DNA from: Cirrosporium novae-zelandiae
Taxonomy: Eukaryota
Direction: 5' to 3'
Length of the DNA: 29,753 bases
NCBI GenBank assembly: GCA_026023565.1
Contig: JAPETS010000053.1
Coordinates: forward strand, 124,001-153,753
Below the pieces are notes generated by a model. That model was not told the origin of the DNA and did not search any database. It saw only the letters and a program-made list of their open reading frames with translations. Both the position numbers and the translations under genes were made by a program. Of the stretch, positions 1-24,797 are shown one piece after another. Every line of letters begins with the position of its first letter. Within the stretch, counting starts at the first letter, position 1.

Positions 1-980
1 CCCTACCCCTACTTTACCCTACCCCCCCCTTATCAAGGAATTTTTAAATTTAAACCAAGTCAAAGTTCAAGTTCAAGTTTTTTTTTTCCTGTAATTATAA
101 GGATGGACCTGCGAGGGGGGAGGGAGGAAGAAGAAGAAGTATATTATATATTATATATATTTTAGGGCAATGAGGAGGAGGAAGGGAAAGAAAGGGAAAT
201 TGTTGATATTGATGTTGATATTGAGTAGTGTGTATGTATGTCTATTCGGACAGTACAAGACAACAACTAGATATCCATGTCTATATCTATATTCTATAGA
301 AGAAAGAAAGAAAGAAAGGGGGGAAAGAAAAGAAAAAAATCTTTTGCTAGAATTTCGATTTTTATATCATCTTATTTAAATGGGGTAGGTATAGTATATA
401 TGCTTACTGTACTGTACCTTCTCATATTTACGAAGTCAATATACCCTAACTTTTAATACTTCAACACATCCCCCCCCCCCTACCGTGAAGCCCTAGCCCT
501 AGTTTCGATTCCAAAGATAATAGGAGAGACCTACACAATATTACGGCCCTTAGAGAAAGTGTAGCCTTATCTTGTAATCATTTATTTGGACCTATTTGTC
601 AATCCATCTACAAAGTAATTATTGCTGATTTAGGATGGTTGGTTGGTTTTGTATACACCAGCTCTCTTCTCATTCCCCCTAGACTACCACTGCAGTCTTA
701 CGATTTCGCGGTCGAGTGGTAGGTAGGTCGGTAGGTAAGTGAGTATGTGACGGCGAAATAATACTAATGATTTGTACTAGCTACCATGTTCTTTTTGATA
801 TGTATGCTATATACTAACGATATATGTACGTGACATATCAATAGCGAAATTGAATCCTATCCAACACCACCGACGCCAACCTTACCAAACCTAACTTAAC
901 ATATGACGCCTCGCTATGCAATCTATCTACCGTATATGCAACATCAGCAAAGGAAGCGACAACAGCCATAAATAAGGCCA

Positions 981-3900
981 TCACCGTCTTCCCCAGATCT
1001 TCCAGCCTCCCTTCTTATCCTTCTGCCTCTCGGCCTCATAATTTTCTTCTTCGACGTGGTGCTTGCCAACGATAGTCAAGAAGACTTGGTCTAACGTCGT
1101 TTGGGCTACCGAATAGTACGCCAGATCCAGGGAATCCTTGTTGTTCTCAAGCAAAGTAAAGAGGGATGCTATGGTAAGGGGTTTCGTGTTGGAGGGTTCG
1201 GAGACCTCTGCAGAAGCCTTGGTATCATTTTCATTATCCTCTACCGAGATTGTGGTAGACGAAATGTCTTTTGTTTTATAGTTGGGTGGGGGGTTCTCTC
1301 CTGCAGGTACGAGGTGATGTGCAGGTACACTGAACCTCATTTGTCCATGCCATGTCTTTTCTTCAACAACTGCACTAGGGAAGTGGTCAATAACCCAGGC
1401 CCGTATCCGTTCCATCTCTTCTTTGTCGGTATGTGGTGCGGTTCGAGTGACGATTTGCACGTGGTAGGTATTCCCATGTTTCTGCCTGAGGTATTCACTG
1501 CTGCCCAAGGCCAACATTCTCCCAGCAATGATGCCTACTCTGTTCGCCAGGGCATCCGCCTCCTCCATCGAATGTGTGGTTAGTACCAGAGAACGGCCGG
1601 GAGCTACAGATGCGAGGGTTTTCCACATTACACGTTTCGAAGCGGCATCCATACCCGAAGACGGTTCGTCGAGGAGGAGAACTGAAGGGTTACCCATGAG
1701 TGCGATGCCCAAAGACAATTTCCGTTTGTTGCCTCCGGACAGTTTTGCGGCCATGCGGTTAGAGAGTGTCTGCAGGCCCACGGCGCGGATGACTTCCTGA
1801 ACATTATGTTCCACATTAGGCACGCCCCGGATTCGAGCATAGAAGCGCAAGTGTTCCAGCACGGTCATTTGATCAATGGCGTCAAATTGTGGGCATACGC
1901 CAAGATGGGCCCTGGCGGCTGCGCGATCCCTATTCATAGCGACATTCTCAACAAAGACCTCGCCGCTACGAGGTTTTATATCACCTCGAATGATACTAAT
2001 GCATGTTGATTTGCCGGCACCGTTTGGTCCGAGCATAGCAAATAGTTGGCCTGGTTTGACATCGAACGAAACATTCTCTAATGCCACGTTTTTGCCAAAA
2101 GTCTTTGTAAGGTGATGCACGCGAAGGCCGTCGTCGGTTGGAGTGCTAACACTCGTAAGATCATTGGAAATCTCTTCATCCACGTGGTCAGCCTCTTCGG
2201 CATCTTTCGAGCGGAACTTGCTACGTTCCCAGAAGGTTATGAATGAACCGCTGTCCCACCATAATAACACTCCAAAAAGGAGAGCTCCCTGAATAATTAA
2301 ATAGAGAATCGGGCCACCGTATAATCTGATGCCGCCTGGATAGGAGGCAACATGTTCATCCCGGCAAAGTATCGAGAACTCATTTAGAGCAACAAAAAGA
2401 GAGCGAAGCAAGTTTCCAGCAGGAGTTATTGTGGCAATAGCAAAATGAGTGATATCGACCATCGAATCGATCTTATTTGTCGGGGCATATGTAAGCACCG
2501 ACAAATATGCAATGAAGTATAACAGAAACATCCCGGCCTGGCCGCCAGCAGAAAAAGCGAATGTCGCCAGCGACGAAGTGGTAAAGAGCGATACAACTAG
2601 AGAATTAACGGTTAGCTTGTCAATATTTCATGCAACCAGTACGGCTATTAGTATTTAAGCACCTTCCACCTTGGCCACTTGAGATACTAAGCGGCTTTCA
2701 AAGCAGAAATATTCACCGTTCATTTGCGGAAACCTTTAAGCAAAGTTGACTTACCATATGAAAATAGCGTAGAGGTGAATCCATAAAGGAAAAAGACCAC
2801 GAAGAGATATTCTGGATGATACCACATGCCTGAAGACGCCGAGTAGATGATAATGGCGAGAACACTAATGGTAATGACAAACATGAAATCAAAGATAATA
2901 TATGCTAACCAAAGAGGGAATGTTCTAACACCGTTGGAGTAGTGGAGGCTGCGAACATTGTGAAGACGCTCAATATTTGGGTATAACCCAAAGAAAGCAG
3001 GATAGGCACACATTGCTAATCCGAAATAGACAATCAGTTGCAAGGTTTTCCCGCTAGACGGGTCCCACGGTATATCAAAGGCTTCGTATTGGTTTTGGAT
3101 GCTAATATTTGTGAGAAGAACATCCATGAAATTTTGCGTGATTGAAGCGTATGACGGGTTATATCCGTTGCCTCTGTAAGCAAATGTGGGGGGTGAGCTA
3201 TCATCCCCTAGGAAGAATCCTCCAGGGGTAATGTTGGCATAACTAGTTGAAATATAATCGTTGAATTCCTGTAGAGTATCAACCATATGAAGTTTACTCC
3301 TCAATGCCGTCATGTTGGTGGTTTCTGAATCAGAACTAGATCCGGACCCGGATCCAGAAATGGAGCTGGTGAAGAGTTCTAGGGCGGTATCCCCCAGCTT
3401 GCTACGAGGTCCAGCCACAACTTTAAAGTCGTAATCGAGAAACGAGGATAACGTGTATGTTTTGCTATATGATATCTGACCTCCCTGGTCAGGAGAGCAT
3501 GTAGCACGCGATACATTCTTTAAAAACAAAGTTGTAAGTCCGGCAGCAATGACAGGTATCACCAGGGCAGCAGCATGTGGCAGGTAGTTACGGCGGATGA
3601 TGGTCAAGCGCTTCTTAAACAAAATCAATGCTTGGAGAGGCATCCCGATTCGTCTGCCAGTCAGAAGTTGGGGGCTCTGGTCGTCACCGTTGACCACAGT
3701 GTCGGAAGACTGCTCATCCACTTCTGATTTTATGGATGCATCGGGGTACTGTTTATCAGCCAGGTTCACTTCTTCGGCTAATTTCAGAAAGACGTCCTCG
3801 ATGGTAGGACCTAATACTTGATAGTCGTGGATGTCGTGATTCTCCAGCCGCTCCATTACTTTCGCAGCTTCTGCTGAATTTGGAACGGTATATACGGTCC

Positions 3901-6197
3901 GGCCGTCGTTCATCTTTTCGGACCTGGCTCCTAAGAGGTCTTGGGATTTCTCAAACATAGTTGGTTTCTCTGAGTTACCGTTGACATATATCCGGTATCC
4001 GCCACCGATATTCTGTTTTAGTTCTGCTGCCGAACCTTCGGCTTTAAGAACACCCCGTGATAAAATCGCAATCCGATCGGAGAGCAAGTCAGCTTCGTCA
4101 AGGAAATGTGTAGTTAGGATGATAGTTCTTTTTCCTCTTTCAGCCAAAAGAATGTCCCAAATCTTCCGTCGAGATAGTGGATCAATACCGGAGCTGACTT
4201 CGTCCACCGCACATGTAGAGCTTCCTCCTGTAAACATCATAGCCAGTTGAAGCTTTCTTTTCTGTCCACCAGATAAAGTCCGTGATTGCGCGTTGAGTTT
4301 TCGGTCTAGGTCACAAGCTGCAACAAGGACTTCAATAGCATCGTCGCTGTCTTTTGACCCTGTTGATTTCAACCGATTGAATATGCGTACATGCTCTTTG
4401 ACAGTAAGTTCGTCCCATAGGACATTCTTTTGTGGACAAAGTCCTAAGCCACCGGTGCTGTTGACTGTAATCGTCCCGGAAGTTACCTTCGTAAGCCCAC
4501 TGATGGCATCGAGGGTTGTACTTTTGCCGGAACCGTTGGCCCCAAGAAGGATTAAAATATTTCCTTGCAAAGCTGTCAAGCTCAAGTTGTCAACAGCAAC
4601 AACATCTTCATGATGGTGACCGAATAAAGGAGATATACGTCGTTGGATCCAATTCGGACGGAAAATCTTGGTGAATCCGCTTAATATCACATCTCGAGAT
4701 ACGCCATTGACTTCACTGTTAGGAGCTAATGTTCTCCCCTCGGATGCAGTTCCGTGTAGTTTTCGCTCAACTAAAGCCCCAAGGAGGGGATAGACTATGA
4801 TATGGATTATCATAAAAATCCAGAGCACTATGCCAGACAAAACCCATGGATTTTCTGGGGCACTTTTAACCAGATTCGTGGCCACATCCTGTCTCTCCCA
4901 TCTGGCCATAAGGATAATGAAGTAGGTATAAGTCATTGGGGGGAAAAAGAGACTTAGGAAAGTAACCACTCCGGTGCCTGACTTTGCAGTAACAACTTGT
5001 GCAAAAACAGCAAGAAGAAGTGATATAATGACAGACACTATACCGCTTAGCTGTGCCTTTCGGAAAAAGGAGCCTAGAAATACAGAAAATGATGACAGCT
5101 GGAGGCCTCCTAGAAAGTTGAACACGAGCAAGACGCCAATGGATGTCTTTTGAAAAACTCCGAGAGATAGAATAATTGCCATGACAATCCATCCAGGAAG
5201 ATACATGATATCAAAAGCTAGATGGTGAGACAATAATCTAATAGCCTGTGGTTCCCAGCGACGAGTATTCGGCATCATGGCATCTATGAGCTGGGCCATG
5301 CCCAGTTCTCTCTCTATTGCAATCATTCCAACCAATTGATAGGCCACGCCAACTATAGCAATGTAGAATGCGACCCCTAGAATATCAATTATGCCGCCCA
5401 TGTATCGAACACGGATCTGAGCCTGTCTCTCCTTTTGGGAAATAGTGGTGTAGGGATAGTCATAAGTAGCGCCGGGCAACGCGGATCCATCAATAGTACT
5501 ATTTAAAGAGGCGATTTCAAAGTCTATGGCGTGCTGAAGAGGAACAACATATATGTCCTGATCATTCTTACTGCTGGTAATATCAATCTTCTCAGCCAAG
5601 GCGCCATCAGCTCGCAGTGTATAATTCCATACGCCTCCAGATCCTTCAGTCGGCGAGGAGTGGAATACTGCAGCTGCGAAGCATGTCGAAACACCTCGAA
5701 TTGAATTGTGACATGTTGTCAAAAGGTCTTCATCCTTCGATACAATCTGGACTGTTTTTCCGTCGGCTCGGATAGGAGCGGCGACATTTTCAATAACCTT
5801 TGCAATATGCCCTCCGGTGTAGCCATTGTTCACAAATACAAGTCTATCTCGCCCACCGCCAGCGTTATTGATCGCATTGGTCAAGGTTCTTATCGCTGAC
5901 CCGTCACCGATTCCATACGTGGATGGAGGTACGAATAGATTCCTGGCATAGGCTCTGGAAGCTAGTTAGTATCTTTAAACCAAGCGGTAAGTAAAGTATT
6001 GCTCTCAAAATATAAATTTGCTTATGGCACGTGAGCATATGGAAATATATACAAAACTAAATTCACACTCACAGGAACCAGATGAATACTATAGGTAGAA
6101 TAAGAGCTCTAGCTGGCGTGGAAATAATATGACGGACAAGAGTAATCAGAATGTCCTTGAGTGCCAGGGTCCAAGTCTGGCGCAAAAAGAGCCTCAT
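981..6197 (-). CDS. ABCA-subfamily full-length ABC transporter (TMD-NBD-TMD-NBD), ~1646 aa. Exons 6197-6073, 5954-2755, 2596-981
   Basis: ORFs 2720..5884 and 981..2531 join in frame across an intron at 2754-2597 (GTAAGT...GCTAAC...TAG). An upstream exon MRLFLRQTWTLALKDILI... joins across an intron at 6072-5955 (GTGAGT...ACTAAC...CAG). NBD1 has GANGSGKST, LSGGQKRKL, VDEVSSGIDP and TTHFLDEAD. NBD2 has GPNGAGKST, LSGGNKRKL, LLDEPSSGMD and TTHSMEEAD. The C-terminal QTTLDQVFL and large exocytoplasmic loops are ABCA hallmarks. Confidence 0.95.
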
Positions 6198-19770: not shown

Positions 19771-20244
19771 GTTAATTTAATGGCGAATTAACTTGACATA
19801 TACCCTTAATTGCACTTTTATAAATTAATTACCGAGACGGTAAAAATGACTAGAATTGGAATATTGATATAGATTGATATCTATAAATGTACTATTTGTA
19901 GCGTAGCCGAGCTGAATATGTGGGTTGGTATGCGGTAGGGATGGCGATCAAGGGATCAGGATCAAGGAATCAAGGAAGCCACAGAGGCGATGAGGCGAAG
20001 CACTTCCTTTCAATATGCTACGCACGTTTTCCGCGCAATCTCGACAATTCTCTTGGCTCAATGCCTCTTATTTCTATTAGATTATATAGAAGACATGGTG
20101 AAACCCTTCAGGTTCATTGATAATTTCTAATACATCCCAACAAATATATATGTATACCCTCGGCAATTGAGGACAGGTCACAAGAAAAGACAAGAAAAGG
20201 CAAAAAAGACTGTCATAAGCATTAACAGAAGATCAGCAGCAACA

Positions 20245-22357
20245 ATGCCACTTAAGGATATTCTCAAGAAAAAAGATAGAATCGCGCAGGAGCAGTACCC
20301 TAATTCTCCGACTTCGACTCAAAGCCTTAATGTTCCTCAGTTTACCTTTGTGCGCACCGACACCCATACCGAAGAGATTATACACCCACCATCCTTTGCC
20401 GGAGATGCTACACCAACGGAATCAGAGAAAGAAGAAACTTACTCTGTCAAGCGTTTGAGTCGTTTTCGACGAAAATCAAGTCCTCCTAAACCCTCTTCTG
20501 ATAATACTCCTCCCCATCGCGGGAGACGCATGAGTGAACGTTTCCACATCCGACCATCGTCACGAGGCTCGAGCGATAATGTTCCTTCAGATTTACCCCA
20601 AATTCCAGAAGCTGGTGCGGCGCCAGAGGAGCAGGAGGCACAATGGGAAGAAAGAGCGACGAAACTTGCTCAAGCAAACCCAATAGTAAATAGCAACAGG
20701 CCCGAGCCTTCTCGCGGTCGGAGCGAGCCTTTCTTAGGGAACAATACGGGTTTATCTTCAAACGATAGAAGTAGAAGTAGGAGCCGGAGCATCAGCAATG
20801 CCGAGGGAGATGTATGAAACAATTATTCATGTCGATCTATGGAGACTGATCATCGGTGCAGGATCATATACAAGAAGCGATCCGTTTACATGAAGAAGGG
20901 CGTAAGTAGCCACCTCCAGATAATGATTTTCATTGATATGATCATCCACTTATGATGCTTGGATCACTTAGGTCTCGAAGAATCTACAGCAATGTTTGGC
21001 CGCCTTGCCGATCCCAACGGCGTAAACAATGCTCTCAGCCAGGTGCTCTATGGTCTTGCGTTGCGGTGAGCAGCCTCCCCACACGACCCTTTTGCCCCCC
21101 AGACTGATAATCCTTTCTACGTCCAGTCACGGATGGGGGATTGAAATCAATACCTCGAAAGGTCTCACATACCTCTCGCTCGCCGCATCCAACTCCGCGG
21201 CCGTCGAGGAGATGGCCCTCCAATCCGGAATGAAGAAAGGAGGAGCCGCGAAAGGCGAACTTGTGCTCGCCATTTACGAATTAGCAAACTCGTTCCGTAA
21301 CGGATGGGGCGTTCACAAAGACCCAGTAGCAGCGAAGCAATACTACGAAGCGGCAGCGAACTTGGGAGACACGGACGCCATGAACGAAGTTGCATGGTGC
21401 TATCTCGAAGGCTTTGGGTGTAAGAAGGATAAGGTGAGAGCTATAATTTCTATTGCCGTATCGATTCCCTCGCACGATTTCCCGTTGCGTTTATCGTACC
21501 TATGGTTCAACGGTGCCTGAACCCGGGGTCTGGAGGAGCAATATTGCATCAGCCTTGAATTGCTGCCCGTGTGCCCTCCCTCCCTACTCACCAGCCATAG
21601 AGAACAGCCACGGAAGAAATGAGGCGGTGTGGGCTTCGCATTGGCCTTGCAAACGGCTCTTGTTGGAGAAAAGGCCGATTTGCGCAAGGAACGGGTTGGG
21701 CAGCAATGCTTTCATCACCTCGTCCCATTCAGAACTTCTCAACTCAAAAAAGGCGTGACGAGAGTAGTGGGATAGAAGCTGACTGATTTGTCCACAGTAC
21801 ACGGCAGCCAAATATTACCGGTTGGCTGAGACCAAAGGAAATAAAACGCTAGGCAATACCTGGTTAGTTGTCTCCATTTCCATTTTTTCCTTGGTTTCAT
21901 AGACCTTATGCAAGCCTTTCTCACACCAAATGCACAAATCACGTATTTGGAAATTTATAATTCTTTCCTGTTGTGGCTTTCTTGGGCATCATCAGCCATT
22001 ATTTTCCTCAATCAGCCTTGTCACCTGTGCTGCAAGGAAAATCTTCCTATTTGGCACCCTCAACAAACTGTGGTCGGTGGTGTCACAGATCGCATAATCT
22101 CGTCTCGAATGATAGGCTGACAGCGAATCTACAACCACACCCCTCTATCGGCAAACCCCTCCAACCAGGACACCCAAAAGCCACACCTTTCATTTGTCTT
22201 TTTCCCTTGTGTCACTTTCCGAAATTTCCACGCGCATACGTACATATCTCAAACATGATGGCTCCCACTATTTCTTACATGTCGGGAAAAAAACGTGGCT
22301 GACTGGTGTGTGAACAATAGGATTTGGAAGCCAAAGTACGACCCGAAAGAAGCATAG
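20245..22357 (+). CDS. Sel1-like (SLR) repeat protein of the Nif1/Dsf2-like type, ~369 aa. Exons 20245-20811, 20862-20901, 20972-21065, 21127-21433, 21798-21862, 22321-22357
   Basis: A disordered S/R/P-rich N-terminus is followed by the spliced sequence IQEAIRLHEEG-RLEESTAMF...SQVLYGLALRHGWG...LAIYELANSFRNGWGVHKDPVAAKQYYEAAANLGDTDAMNEVAWCYLEGFGCKKDK-YTAAKYYRLAETKGNKTLGNTW-IWKPKY. All five GT-AG introns keep the frame. Confidence 0.9.
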
Positions 22358-23092
22358 CGCCTGGTGTTGGTTTGTGATTTCAACTTTCAAAAATTACCGT
22401 GTATGGGTATGGTATGGAAAGGTAACCGGGGTGTGCATATTGTCTTGTGCTCATCTTATCCTGGAGCATGAAGACTTTGTCGGTCTCGACCTTTCTCAGA
22501 TTTCTTTAGGAATGAATATTTTGTACTTGGGCACATTTCTTCGCCCTACTTTGGGCTTTGATTTAGGGAAATAGGGATCAGGGGGATTAAGGGTTGCACA
22601 ACAAATTGAGATGTGAGGATGAGTCAATGGCTGAACGGATTTTTACTTGTTGTTTTTTTTTTCTATTGGCATAATTCCTTTACTATTAGTGATTCGTTGC
22701 ATCAGATATACGAAGATTTTTTTTTTTATTTTCTATCTCCTCGGGTTTGGGGTTAGGAGTCATAGAAAGATTTTTTTGAGGTTGAAACAGAGGTTTCGCA
22801 TCCATCAGTATTCAGTACTACTCAGTACATTGATGAAGTTTCCATCAACACGGAACTTATCCTTGATCTATTTTTTTTTTCTTTTTCTTTTTGATATATG
22901 TACTTGGCTAATCTTGGTAATTCACCAGGCCTTGAATCTTGGCATACATTCATCTTTCTCTTTCTCTCTTCGAGAGAGAGAGATTCAGGCAAGTATGAAT
23001 TCCAATCATCTCTCATATCCAACTCGATTCGATTCGATCTCGAACTCGAACTCGACTCCCTACGCTTATCCCATCCATGATAGACATACAGA

Positions 23093-23150
23093 TCGCCATC
23101 GCCATTGCCATCGCCATTGCCATCGCCATCGCCCATCGCCCATCGCCATC
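23093..23150 (+). repeat. (TCGCCA/TTGCCA)n degenerate hexamer repeat
   Basis: About 9 units of GCCATC/GCCATT. It produces the spurious IAIAIA, HRHRH and GDGNG ORFs. Confidence 0.85.
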
Positions 23151-24797
23151 TGATCCCAATCCCTCACCCTCAACTCAAACCCATCAATCCCATCAAGCAA
23201 ACGCAGCACAACGCAGCACCAGCACCAGCACAACACAACCCCCTCCTTTTCCTTCTCCTCGACTTCTTCACCCCCCCCCCCTCCCCCTCCTTCACCTTCG
23301 AATTCCCCTAACCCACGACCTAACCCTCGCCTCTAGCTTCTTCTTCTTCTTGACTCCAACAATCTCCAAACAAAGTTATTAACCTCTACGTACCTACGTA
23401 CCTACGTACATACTATGGTAAATGTACATACATACATGCATGCATACTTGCATAACTATGCTGCAGAAACCGAACCTAACCTAACCTAACCTAACTGAAG
23501 CTAAGTCAAATTAAGCTAATGCAGATGCACAAGCGGGCTGCCGGCGCATTCCTTTCCCATTCCCTTCCCCATCCGAAATCCTAACTTCGACTCAATGACT
23601 AGACGACAAAGTAAACGCAAGTGAAGGGTTTAAACGTGGCAGAAGCCCTCAACAAACTACGAATGGTCTAAGCAATTGGGGGGTTTTCTTGAATAAGTCC
23701 TTTTTTTGATACGGATACAGATACATAGATACGTAGATACGTAGATACACACACGGAGAGAGATACATGGAGAAAATAAAAAAAAATAAAATAAAAAGTT
23801 TAAATTTTTTTTGTGTGTTTTTCTTTTTTTGCGAGCTTGAACCCCTCCCTCACTCACTTATGCTTCTACCCCCCCTGCTCCCTGCTCTCCCACTTCTACA
23901 CATTGCACTCCCCCAACTCTTTTGTTTCGTTTCAAAACCCTCCGTAAAAACATAAAAACACAAAACACACAAAAACCCATGAACCCGGTACGGCCCGTCC
24001 CGTACCAGCTGGCCCTTCTTTACTTTACGGCTCTAGGTCTCTAGGTCTCTAACATATAAAATTCATCTACGTTGAGGATCGGGATTTGTAGGTTTTTTGT
24101 AGGATTTGGATTGGGAATGGACGAAGGAGAAGAAGAGGAAATATATACGTACAGATAGGTATTTGGAATTGGGGAGGGGGGTTGTTGTATCATTACCCCC
24201 CTCCGTCGTCGTTTTCCTCCGACTTCAACTGCTCCTAGTTAGTATTTTTCGTAAATAACAAAAAAATAGAAAAAGATACTTCACCTATATACATGCCTGT
24301 AATTCAATTAACTGAACCATTTCTTCGTAAAAAAAAAAAAAAGAAATTTCAGAGACCTAATTAACTCGCTTATGCGAAAATACACAATACACCATCCATG
24401 TCCATATAGATAGATAGAGAGATAGCGTGGTAGATAGACATGAAACCTAACCCCTCCACCCCCTCCCCCCCTCCAAAAAAAACTGAAACATAAAAACATA
24501 AAACATAAAACATAAAAAACCCAACGCACACACACAACCACAAAAAAAAAAGGAGGGGTCCAAGCAATCCCAGGGCGGAGGAAGGAATATGCAATATGCA
24601 AAATCCAAAAAAAGTTCGTCTACAGTAGTCTAATTAGCTGTAACACGGTGAGTGGTGGGTACTCGAGTAGGTTATGTAGATAGGTGGGCACTAACTACTA
24701 ACTAACTACTTAGGGTGCATACGTGAGTGCGTGGGAGCGTGGATGCTGGCACATCCAACATGTGCAAGCGAGCGTGCGTGCATGTGTGCAGATTATG

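Follow-up and report, generated by a model that had tools for sequence, protein, structure and literature searches.

The Sel1-repeat gene and its fourth intron

The analyzed window was a 29,753-nt stretch of Cirrosporium novae-zelandiae DNA (assembly GCA_026023565.1, contig JAPETS010000053.1, positions 124,001 to 153,753 of the forward strand). It contains a gene for a Sel1-repeat protein, relatives of which are named DSF2/Nif1-like in public records, and the fourth intron of this gene (intron 4) is the subject of this analysis. A search with the peptide encoded by exon 4 returned 1317 homologues. The best of them (P0001, 100% identity) was a hypothetical protein from a metagenome-assembled genome of Cirrosporium novae-zelandiae, class Xylobotryomycetes, and Pezizomycotina proteins called HCP-like, DSF2, or "cell cycle inhibitor Nif1" were 75%–83% identical. 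According to PMC10023807, Nif1 and Dsf2 belong to the same orthogroup as SppD, a septal-pore protein of Aspergillus, and this group is associated with septal pores and the cell cycle.

The gene model (Table 1) was read from the window sequence and checked against an alignment of spliced homologues (A1). Past exon 4, these homologues continue as KKDK|F/Y.AA..RLAE, and the window product reads KKDK|YTAAKYYRLAE...GNTW|IWKPKY; the C-terminus supported by homology is ...KKDK YTAAKYYRLAETKGNKTLGNTW IWKPKYDPKEA. Intron 4 begins with GTGAGA and ends with CCACAG, has a GC content of 52%, and its removal restores the reading frame. An earlier sequence-only reading of this stretch had placed a 364-nt intron after ...GFGCKKDK with the branch point GCTGAC at 21778. 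Both the GT..AG boundaries and the branch site were found, and orthologous RNA contigs are spliced at the same site. The commonest branch hexamer in orthologous introns was GCTGAC or GCTAAC. Intron 4 had also been regarded as unusually long, which is true in comparison with introns 1–3, but it is not unique in the window, since intron 5 is longer still.

Several public protein models, namely P0001, P0002, P0014, P0025, P0048, and P0085, the window's own among them, read through the donor of intron 4 and end inside the intron (21434–21520 in the window). The public record of the window protein continues as ...KKDKVRAIIS... past this donor. Gene models of the DSF2/Nif1-like family are often misannotated, and reading through the intron-4 donor gives them a wrong C-terminus.

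Table 1. Features of the 3' part of the Sel1-repeat gene, with positions in the window
Feature	Position	Strand	Remarks
Intron 1	20812–20861	+	50 nt
Intron 2	20902–20971	+	70 nt
Intron 3	21066–21126	+	61 nt
Exon 4	21127–21433	+	C-terminal ...EGFGCKKDK; from translation and homologue alignment A1
Intron 4	21434–21797	+	U2-type GT..AG, phase 0, 364 nt
Hairpin GGTTCA/TGAACC	21504–21509 / 21518–21523	+	z -0.40
10-bp stem, 5' arm ATTGCTGCCC	21559–21568	+	inverted copy of the motif core, lineage-specific
Local helices, two alternative registers	21637–21689	+	surrounding 66-nt region z -1.66; 7% of shuffles fold as well
GCCTTGCAA	21644–21652	+	possible displaced 5' half of the motif, about 43 nt from the 3' half
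TTGGGCAGCAATGC, window copy of the motif 3' half	21696–21709	+	corresponds to the 3' arm of the 10-bp stem
10-bp stem, 3' arm GGGCAGCAAT	21698–21707	+	inside the conserved motif
Hairpin TCCCATT/AGTGGGA	21723–21729 / 21766–21772	+	7 pairs, one G-U; between motif and branch site; z -1.33
Branch site GCTGAC	21778–21783	+	15 nt before AG; 3' splice site AG at 21796–21797
Exon 5	21798–21862	+	65 nt, encodes YTAAKYYRLAETKGNKTLGNTW
Intron 5	21863–22320	+	GTTAGT..AATAG, 458 nt
Exon 6	22321–22357	+	encodes IWKPKYDPKEA, then stop codon

Conservation of intron 4 and its linear motif

Orthologues were collected by scanning metagenome contigs with the exon 4 alignment, which yielded 80 loci; exons 5 and 6 were then located by peptide patterns. 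An intron after KKDK was found in 58 sources (57 loci and the window) and was always of the GT..AG type. The 49 unique sequences formed 37 clusters, hereafter lineages. By the best match to a named protein these included Tuber-, Didymella-, Plenodomus-, Delitschia-, Lepidopterella-, and Rasamsonia-like ones, and about 20 lineages matched no named protein above 83%. Intron 4 was present and long in all 37 non-redundant genomic lineages (187–574 nt, median 291 nt), and its position is orthologous across them. Intron 3, the control within the same gene, was missing in 19 of 34 lineages and was only 53–105 nt long in the other 15. The length of intron 5 in orthologues ranged from 82 to 1,211 nt (n = 31). 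Intron 4 is a genuine spliceosomal intron whose position is ancient, and it has stayed long in all genomic lineages that were sampled.

Several of the lineages without intron 3 (position before HGWG; loci L001–L080) lacked it on long genomic contigs, which points to repeated loss, unlike introns 4 and 5. One locus, L002, encodes an intronless full-length orthologue of 382 aa (236–1384, plus strand), convergent with an uninterrupted open reading frame (ORF) of 617 aa (2312–4165, minus strand). It may represent assembled overlapping transcripts or complementary DNA, or a genome lacking all introns of the gene, and we therefore do not claim that intron 4 is never lost.

BLASTN comparison of the window intron with the other introns gave repeated matches at one spot, intron positions 262–284. 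The consensus anchored there, ccGCCtcaCnnnTTGGGCAkCAatgc, is about 25 nt long and is located upstream of the branch site, at 40–224 nt from the 3' splice site. As RNA, the element reads GCCUCAY-N3-UUGGGCAKCAAYGC. Neither the T at position 0 nor the GGG varied among the copies, and C followed GGG in 32 of 33 of them. The core T[TC]GGG[CT] was present in 33 of the 37 lineages, and L065 and L070 carried weak variants at the expected place. Carriers of the motif comprised the window, Didymella-, Plenodomus-, Delitschia-, and Lepidopterella-like lineages, and many without an assignment. The long introns of Tuber-like and Rasamsonia-like lineages contained no recognizable motif.

GGGCAGCA was common to 15 of 37 lineages and TTGGGC to 27, while in 100 shuffles of motif-masked introns no 8-mer was common to more than 5 lineages and no 6-mer to more than 14. 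Twenty of the 37 lineages preserved a motif 10-mer although their exon 4 peptides share only 72%–85% identity with that of the window; every other 8-mer was found in at most six. The 10-mer TTGGGCAKCA occurred once each, on the plus strand, in 33 of the 80 loci, with no further occurrence on either of the two strands. A model built from the 33 motif copies (R1, cut-off 16 bits) matched 52 of 81 sources, always on the plus strand and either at the positions used for model building or at the same offset after exon 4. The positions of TTGGGCAKCA agreed with the R1 matches in intron 4 wherever both lists include the locus. Once this motif was masked, a second search yielded nothing beyond branch sites and CGCCTC, close to the upper limit expected by chance.

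The long intron and the motif could in principle be neutral leftovers, with the stem in the window formed by chance. Such an explanation fits the shuffle-like folding described below and the freely varying lengths and flanks of the orthologous introns. It does not fit the 10-mer preserved at this degree of protein divergence, nor an intron of at least 187 nt in 37 of 37 lineages against the repeated absence of intron 3. On these conservation statistics, neutrality is unlikely, and we leave it hardly any probability.

Two other interpretations of the motif were rejected. It is not a decoy 3' splice site (GGGCAG|), since T or C replaces the G in 12 of 33 lineages. Nor is it a coding relic or micro-exon, as it lacks a 3-nt period and varies little or not at all over a run of seven positions. 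A search of open-access papers and preprints yielded no account of intron 4 or its motif; matches to the 10-mer looked like primers and guide sequences.

The copy in the window is atypical. R1 matched it at 21680–21713 (plus strand) with only 16.9 bits because the 5' half of the motif (GCCTCA) is not adjacent. With low confidence, GCCTTGCAA may be this half in a displaced position, judging from cGCCTTGCAAG-TTGGG in L026, compared by eye. R1 also matched the minus strand at 21553–21631 with 15.8 bits, and the 5' arm of the 10-bp stem is thus an inverted copy of the motif core.

The window contains three matches to the motif 10-mer. The second, TTGGGCATCA, is located in intron 5 at 21982–21991 (plus strand) and was not reported by R1 at E up to 10. 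It adjoins short direct repeats (CATCAGCC...; 21547–21561 / 21990–22004 and 21548–21557 / 22011–22020) that also occur immediately before the 5' arm in intron 4, and may be due to chance or be a trace of local duplication. The third, at 1499–1508 on the minus strand, is coding (..RMLALGSSEY..), belongs to an ABC transporter (open frames 981–5965, minus strand), and has no relation to the intron element.

Introner-like elements and stwintrons are other examples of uncommonly long or complex introns in Pezizomycotina (PMC9024468, PMC12403724). They are lineage-specific gains with many similar copies at new positions, whereas intron 4 occupies one orthologous position across classes and has the motif once per locus. 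Within the 1.1-kb segment 21300–22400, no repeated copy of intron 4 was found beyond short matches at chance level.

In the Pleosporales-like versions of intron 4 (L019, L023, L025, L027, L031, L003, and L063; alignment A2), further common blocks were observed, namely TCACCGGTC, GCGAACGGTCAGCTTGGG, GTACAGCCTCGA, and TTCGGCTGATGCGG. A CACCGG-like block was also present in L061 and L070. These blocks may be functional or may simply reflect close kinship.

Folding and pairing of intron 4

The helices listed by the sequence-only reading do exist. ATTGCTGCCC and GGGCAGCAAT are fully complementary, both hairpins were found at their positions, and the strand 21671–21689 can pair either with 21645–21657 or with 21637–21648. 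The minimum-energy fold of the intron uses the 21637–21648 register together with the 10-bp stem. From these helices the intron had been proposed to be an unclassified structured RNA, either a functional noncoding RNA or a splicing switch; the 10-bp stem would enclose a domain inside which two helices toggle. The stem includes the one conserved block of the intron, which favors this proposal.

Folding energies do not bear it out. The whole intron folded at -109.4 kcal/mol, and dinucleotide shuffles averaged -112.5 kcal/mol (z +0.54). Of 100 shuffles, 69 folded equally well or better; z was +0.48 in a repeat run and +0.82 for the minus strand. In sliding 120-nt windows across the intron, z varied from -1.5 to +1.5. 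The stem-closed domain (21559–21707) had z -1.13 and its inner 66 nt z -1.66, these regions, like both hairpins, being chosen post hoc. A perfect inverted repeat of at least 10 bp appeared in 105 of 2,000 dinucleotide shuffles (5.3%). The stems and hairpins of the window were thus not confirmed as more than chance by folding tests.

Pairing of the motif with the upstream part of the intron was compared with that of shuffled upstream sequences. In the window alone, the duplex reached -22.0 kcal/mol versus a shuffle mean of -16.6 kcal/mol, better than 97.7% of shuffles (p 0.023), in line with a structured element. Across the lineages, however, the mean z was -0.15 (n = 33, Fisher p 0.26), and p was below 0.05 in three lineages, the window being one of them, where 1.65 were expected. 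No upstream partner of the 3' arm was conserved over the 33 lineages, and orthologues had no equivalent of the 5' arm. The segment of about 43 nt that carries the competing registers is absent, by eye, from the closest motif variants, L026 and L036, in which the motif halves are adjacent.

Other partners were considered and rejected. Pairing with the start of exon 5, suggested by the possibility that GCUGCCCAA could encode Ala-Ala-Gln, was dismissed because exon sequences vary synonymously without a change in the motif, and no position of exon 4 or exon 5 beat the shuffled motif by more than about 2.6 kcal/mol. In the downstream intron, exon 5, intron 5, and the 3' untranslated region, the best partners were scattered; L058 has a perfect 10-bp match to the motif directly past the stop codon. 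The TACACGTGGC block of intron 5 occurs only in Pleosporales-like lineages and is not complementary to the motif.

In partition-function folds, GGGC was mostly paired, as any GGGC would be, with a partner that differed between lineages, being close by in some and far upstream or downstream in others. RNAalifold analysis of ten related Pleosporales-like introns retained only an invariant 4-bp GCCU/GGGC hairpin, with a covariation term of 0. Over the 33 motif copies, 86% of cells of this mini-hairpin were paired, with Y opposite G, and no pair had changed on both sides, because its 3' side never varies. A GCCY/GGGC mini-hairpin on the motif is accordingly possible but unproven. Taken over the lineages, intron 4 has no detectable conserved secondary structure.

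In long introns of budding yeast, for example, RP51B/RPS17B, the 5' splice site reportedly pairs with the branch site through "zipper stems" (Goguel and Rosbash; Rogic et al.). Intron 4 resembles them in being a long intron among short fungal ones, and the minimum-energy fold of the window intron brings its ends together through the long-range stem and pairing of the 5' end. Compared with shuffles (only 25 per intron), the structural distance separating the 5' splice site from the branch site in 37 introns was not clearly shorter (mean z -0.26, t-test p 0.18, Wilcoxon p 0.09), and z was +0.69 for the window intron alone. The motif partner is not conserved, and zipper stems are not conserved in sequence, whereas the intron-4 element is.

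Searches for known RNA families were also negative. No Rfam match fell inside intron 4 at E up to 10 in a scan of 20000–23500, and 20 orthologue loci (104 kb in total) gave no match at gathering scores. The sequence-only reading had likewise seen no canonical C/D boxes or H/ACA layout of small nucleolar RNAs (snoRNAs) and no thiamine pyrophosphate (TPP) core. ARAGORN found no tRNA-like gene in the intron, and four intronic ORFs had no Pfam match. Downstream of the gene, at 23383–23446 (minus strand), weak matches to two microRNA families were observed (24.9 and 21.1 bits versus gathering scores of 90 and 81) and were taken as chance.

Short or unconserved orthologous introns lacking covariation had been named in advance as evidence against a structured element. 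The orthologues turned out to be long and to share one conserved block, but covariation was zero. Together with the whole-intron energy, the inconsistent location of the motif partner, and the lack of an Rfam family, this brings the structured-RNA interpretation, including the mutually exclusive switch, close to refutation; we regard it as very unlikely.

In the fungal TPP-riboswitch introns of the NMT1/THI4 type, splicing is controlled via long-distance base pairing (PMC3597705, PMC5882874). Intron 4 is similar to them in having a conserved element within a fungal intron and a presumed effect on splice-site choice or retention. Unlike these introns, it has no TPP or other Rfam match, no conserved fold, no covariation, and no ligand-binding core.

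Fungal introns do host snoRNAs, and intron 4 could likewise carry a snoRNA-like or other stable intronic RNA, with the motif as its guide or protein-binding core. The intron is always long enough for a small RNA and, like the snoRNA-hosting introns of filamentous fungi, is a spliceosomal intron of a coding gene longer than the local norm. Pleosporales-like lineages also keep the additional blocks described above. On the other hand, these blocks are limited to one order, only about 25 nt are conserved across classes, and neither a covariance-model match nor conserved flanking boxes nor a terminal stem was found. A hosted RNA is improbable, to about the same degree as a structured switch.

Splicing, retention, and the possible role of the motif

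Evidence on splicing and retention was obtained from orthologous RNA-derived environmental contigs of organisms other than that of the window. Exon 4 was joined directly to exon 5 in 11 of the 80 loci, of which seven also joined exon 5 to exon 6, three ran into unspliced intron 5, and one was incomplete. L011, L018, and L020 were fully spliced versions of the genomic locus L023, and L015 kept intron 5 only. Retention of intron 4 was also detected. Contig L014 was 100% identical to the genomic locus L013 over 428 nt, from exon 4 into the beginning of intron 4; it lacked the L013 intron 3 (about 74 nt, GT..AG) and kept all 362 nt of intron 4. Contig L029, from the same species as L014, was devoid of introns 2, 3, and 4, including exactly the 362-nt GT..AG segment of L014, and kept intron 5. 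L010 and L012 had no introns 1–3, carried intron 4, and had no genomic twin; they are probably further RNAs retaining intron 4. Intron 5 was retained with intron 4 spliced out in three RNA-derived contigs, L015, L028, and L029.

Read-through from exon 4 into intron 4 added tails of 4–140 codons that were unrelated to one another, and retention therefore makes no conserved protein isoform. Since a retained intron 4 leads to a stop codon after a non-conserved tail, the last 33 residues of the protein are lost.

The reading we favor, with a probability of about 0.55, is that the motif works in cis, as a gene-specific element of the pre-mRNA, and adjusts the removal or retention of the obligately long intron 4. 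It would be bound by a putative trans-acting factor, possibly while displayed on the 4-bp GCCY/GGGC mini-hairpin. It would set the removal efficiency of a long, hard-to-splice intron, and retention would yield unproductive or truncated messages. The 10-bp stem of the window, which pairs the 3' half of the motif with a lineage-specific inverted copy, could be either chance or local masking of the site.

Comparable elements have been described in plants. Two reports present the pre-mRNA elements 45ABC of RBP45 genes and DEAD of DEAD-box helicase genes as acting in autoregulation via alternative splicing (PMC13485355, 10.64898/2026.01.23.701338). Like them, the intron-4 element is a gene-family-specific, clade-wide pre-mRNA element of one orthologous gene, and a link to alternative splicing or retention is proposed for it here. 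The plant elements, however, are structured and belong to genes of RNA-binding proteins with an obvious feedback loop, whereas the intron-4 element is linear and its host encodes a Sel1-repeat protein without known RNA binding.

Several points weigh against such control of splicing. No trans factor is known, and the evidence does not separate action of the motif at the RNA level from that at the DNA level. The distance of the motif from the 3' splice site varies fivefold. The mini-hairpin, although mostly paired, shows no compensatory change. Tuber-like and Rasamsonia-like lineages have a long intron without the motif, and length and motif are therefore separable. The retention observed in contigs assembled from environmental RNA may merely mean that a long intron is spliced slowly, without being regulated. 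The window copy lacks the adjacent 5' half and scores low, and splicing and retention were seen in the RNA of orthologues, the organism of the window being known here from DNA alone.

The main rival to action on the pre-mRNA is a DNA-level element. The motif could be a site for a transcription factor or serve as an intronic enhancer or as a promoter, either internal or antisense, with the long intron housing regulatory DNA. This agrees with a linear block that has no pairing partner and lies at a variable distance from the splice site. The Pleosporales-like intron 5 of 605–1,211 nt is another point in its favor, as it has a conserved block, TACACGTGGC, whose core is the palindrome CACGTG and which resembles a factor site. 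Against it, the orientation of the motif relative to the transcript was fixed in every intron-4 match, though conserved context would do likewise, and beyond the motif nothing in the intron is conserved across classes. The motif is not known to match an established factor motif. It may bear some resemblance to snRNA segments, to G-triplet intronic enhancers, or to calcineurin-response or other factor sites. We consider a DNA-level role possible but clearly the less probable explanation. In the 605–1,211-nt versions of intron 5, the mid-intron block with the CACGTG core was seen as aTACACGTGGCg (loci L003, L015–L017, L019, L027, L031, L054, L063, and L064).

A bolder version of splicing control, which we hold to be unlikely, would make the motif a docking site for a dedicated factor that is conserved in Pezizomycotina and gates a slow intron, so that the gene would be post-transcriptionally switched across several fungal classes. 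The inverted copy in the window would then be a structure-gated variant, with access to the site set by a 10-bp RNA helix.

Intron 4 does not appear to be junk, because its orthologues are always long and the one deeply conserved block coincides with the 3' arm of the stem; a role in splicing control is our best guess. To our knowledge, very few conserved elements are established in fungal introns, namely TPP riboswitches, snoRNAs, and a few autoregulatory structures of yeast. The block of about 25 nt described here survived divergence deep enough for intron 3 to be lost in more than half of the lineages scored. Intron 4, at least 187 nt long among neighbors of about 50–100 nt, together with the evidence of its retention, offers a concrete, mutable target for regulated splicing in filamentous fungi.

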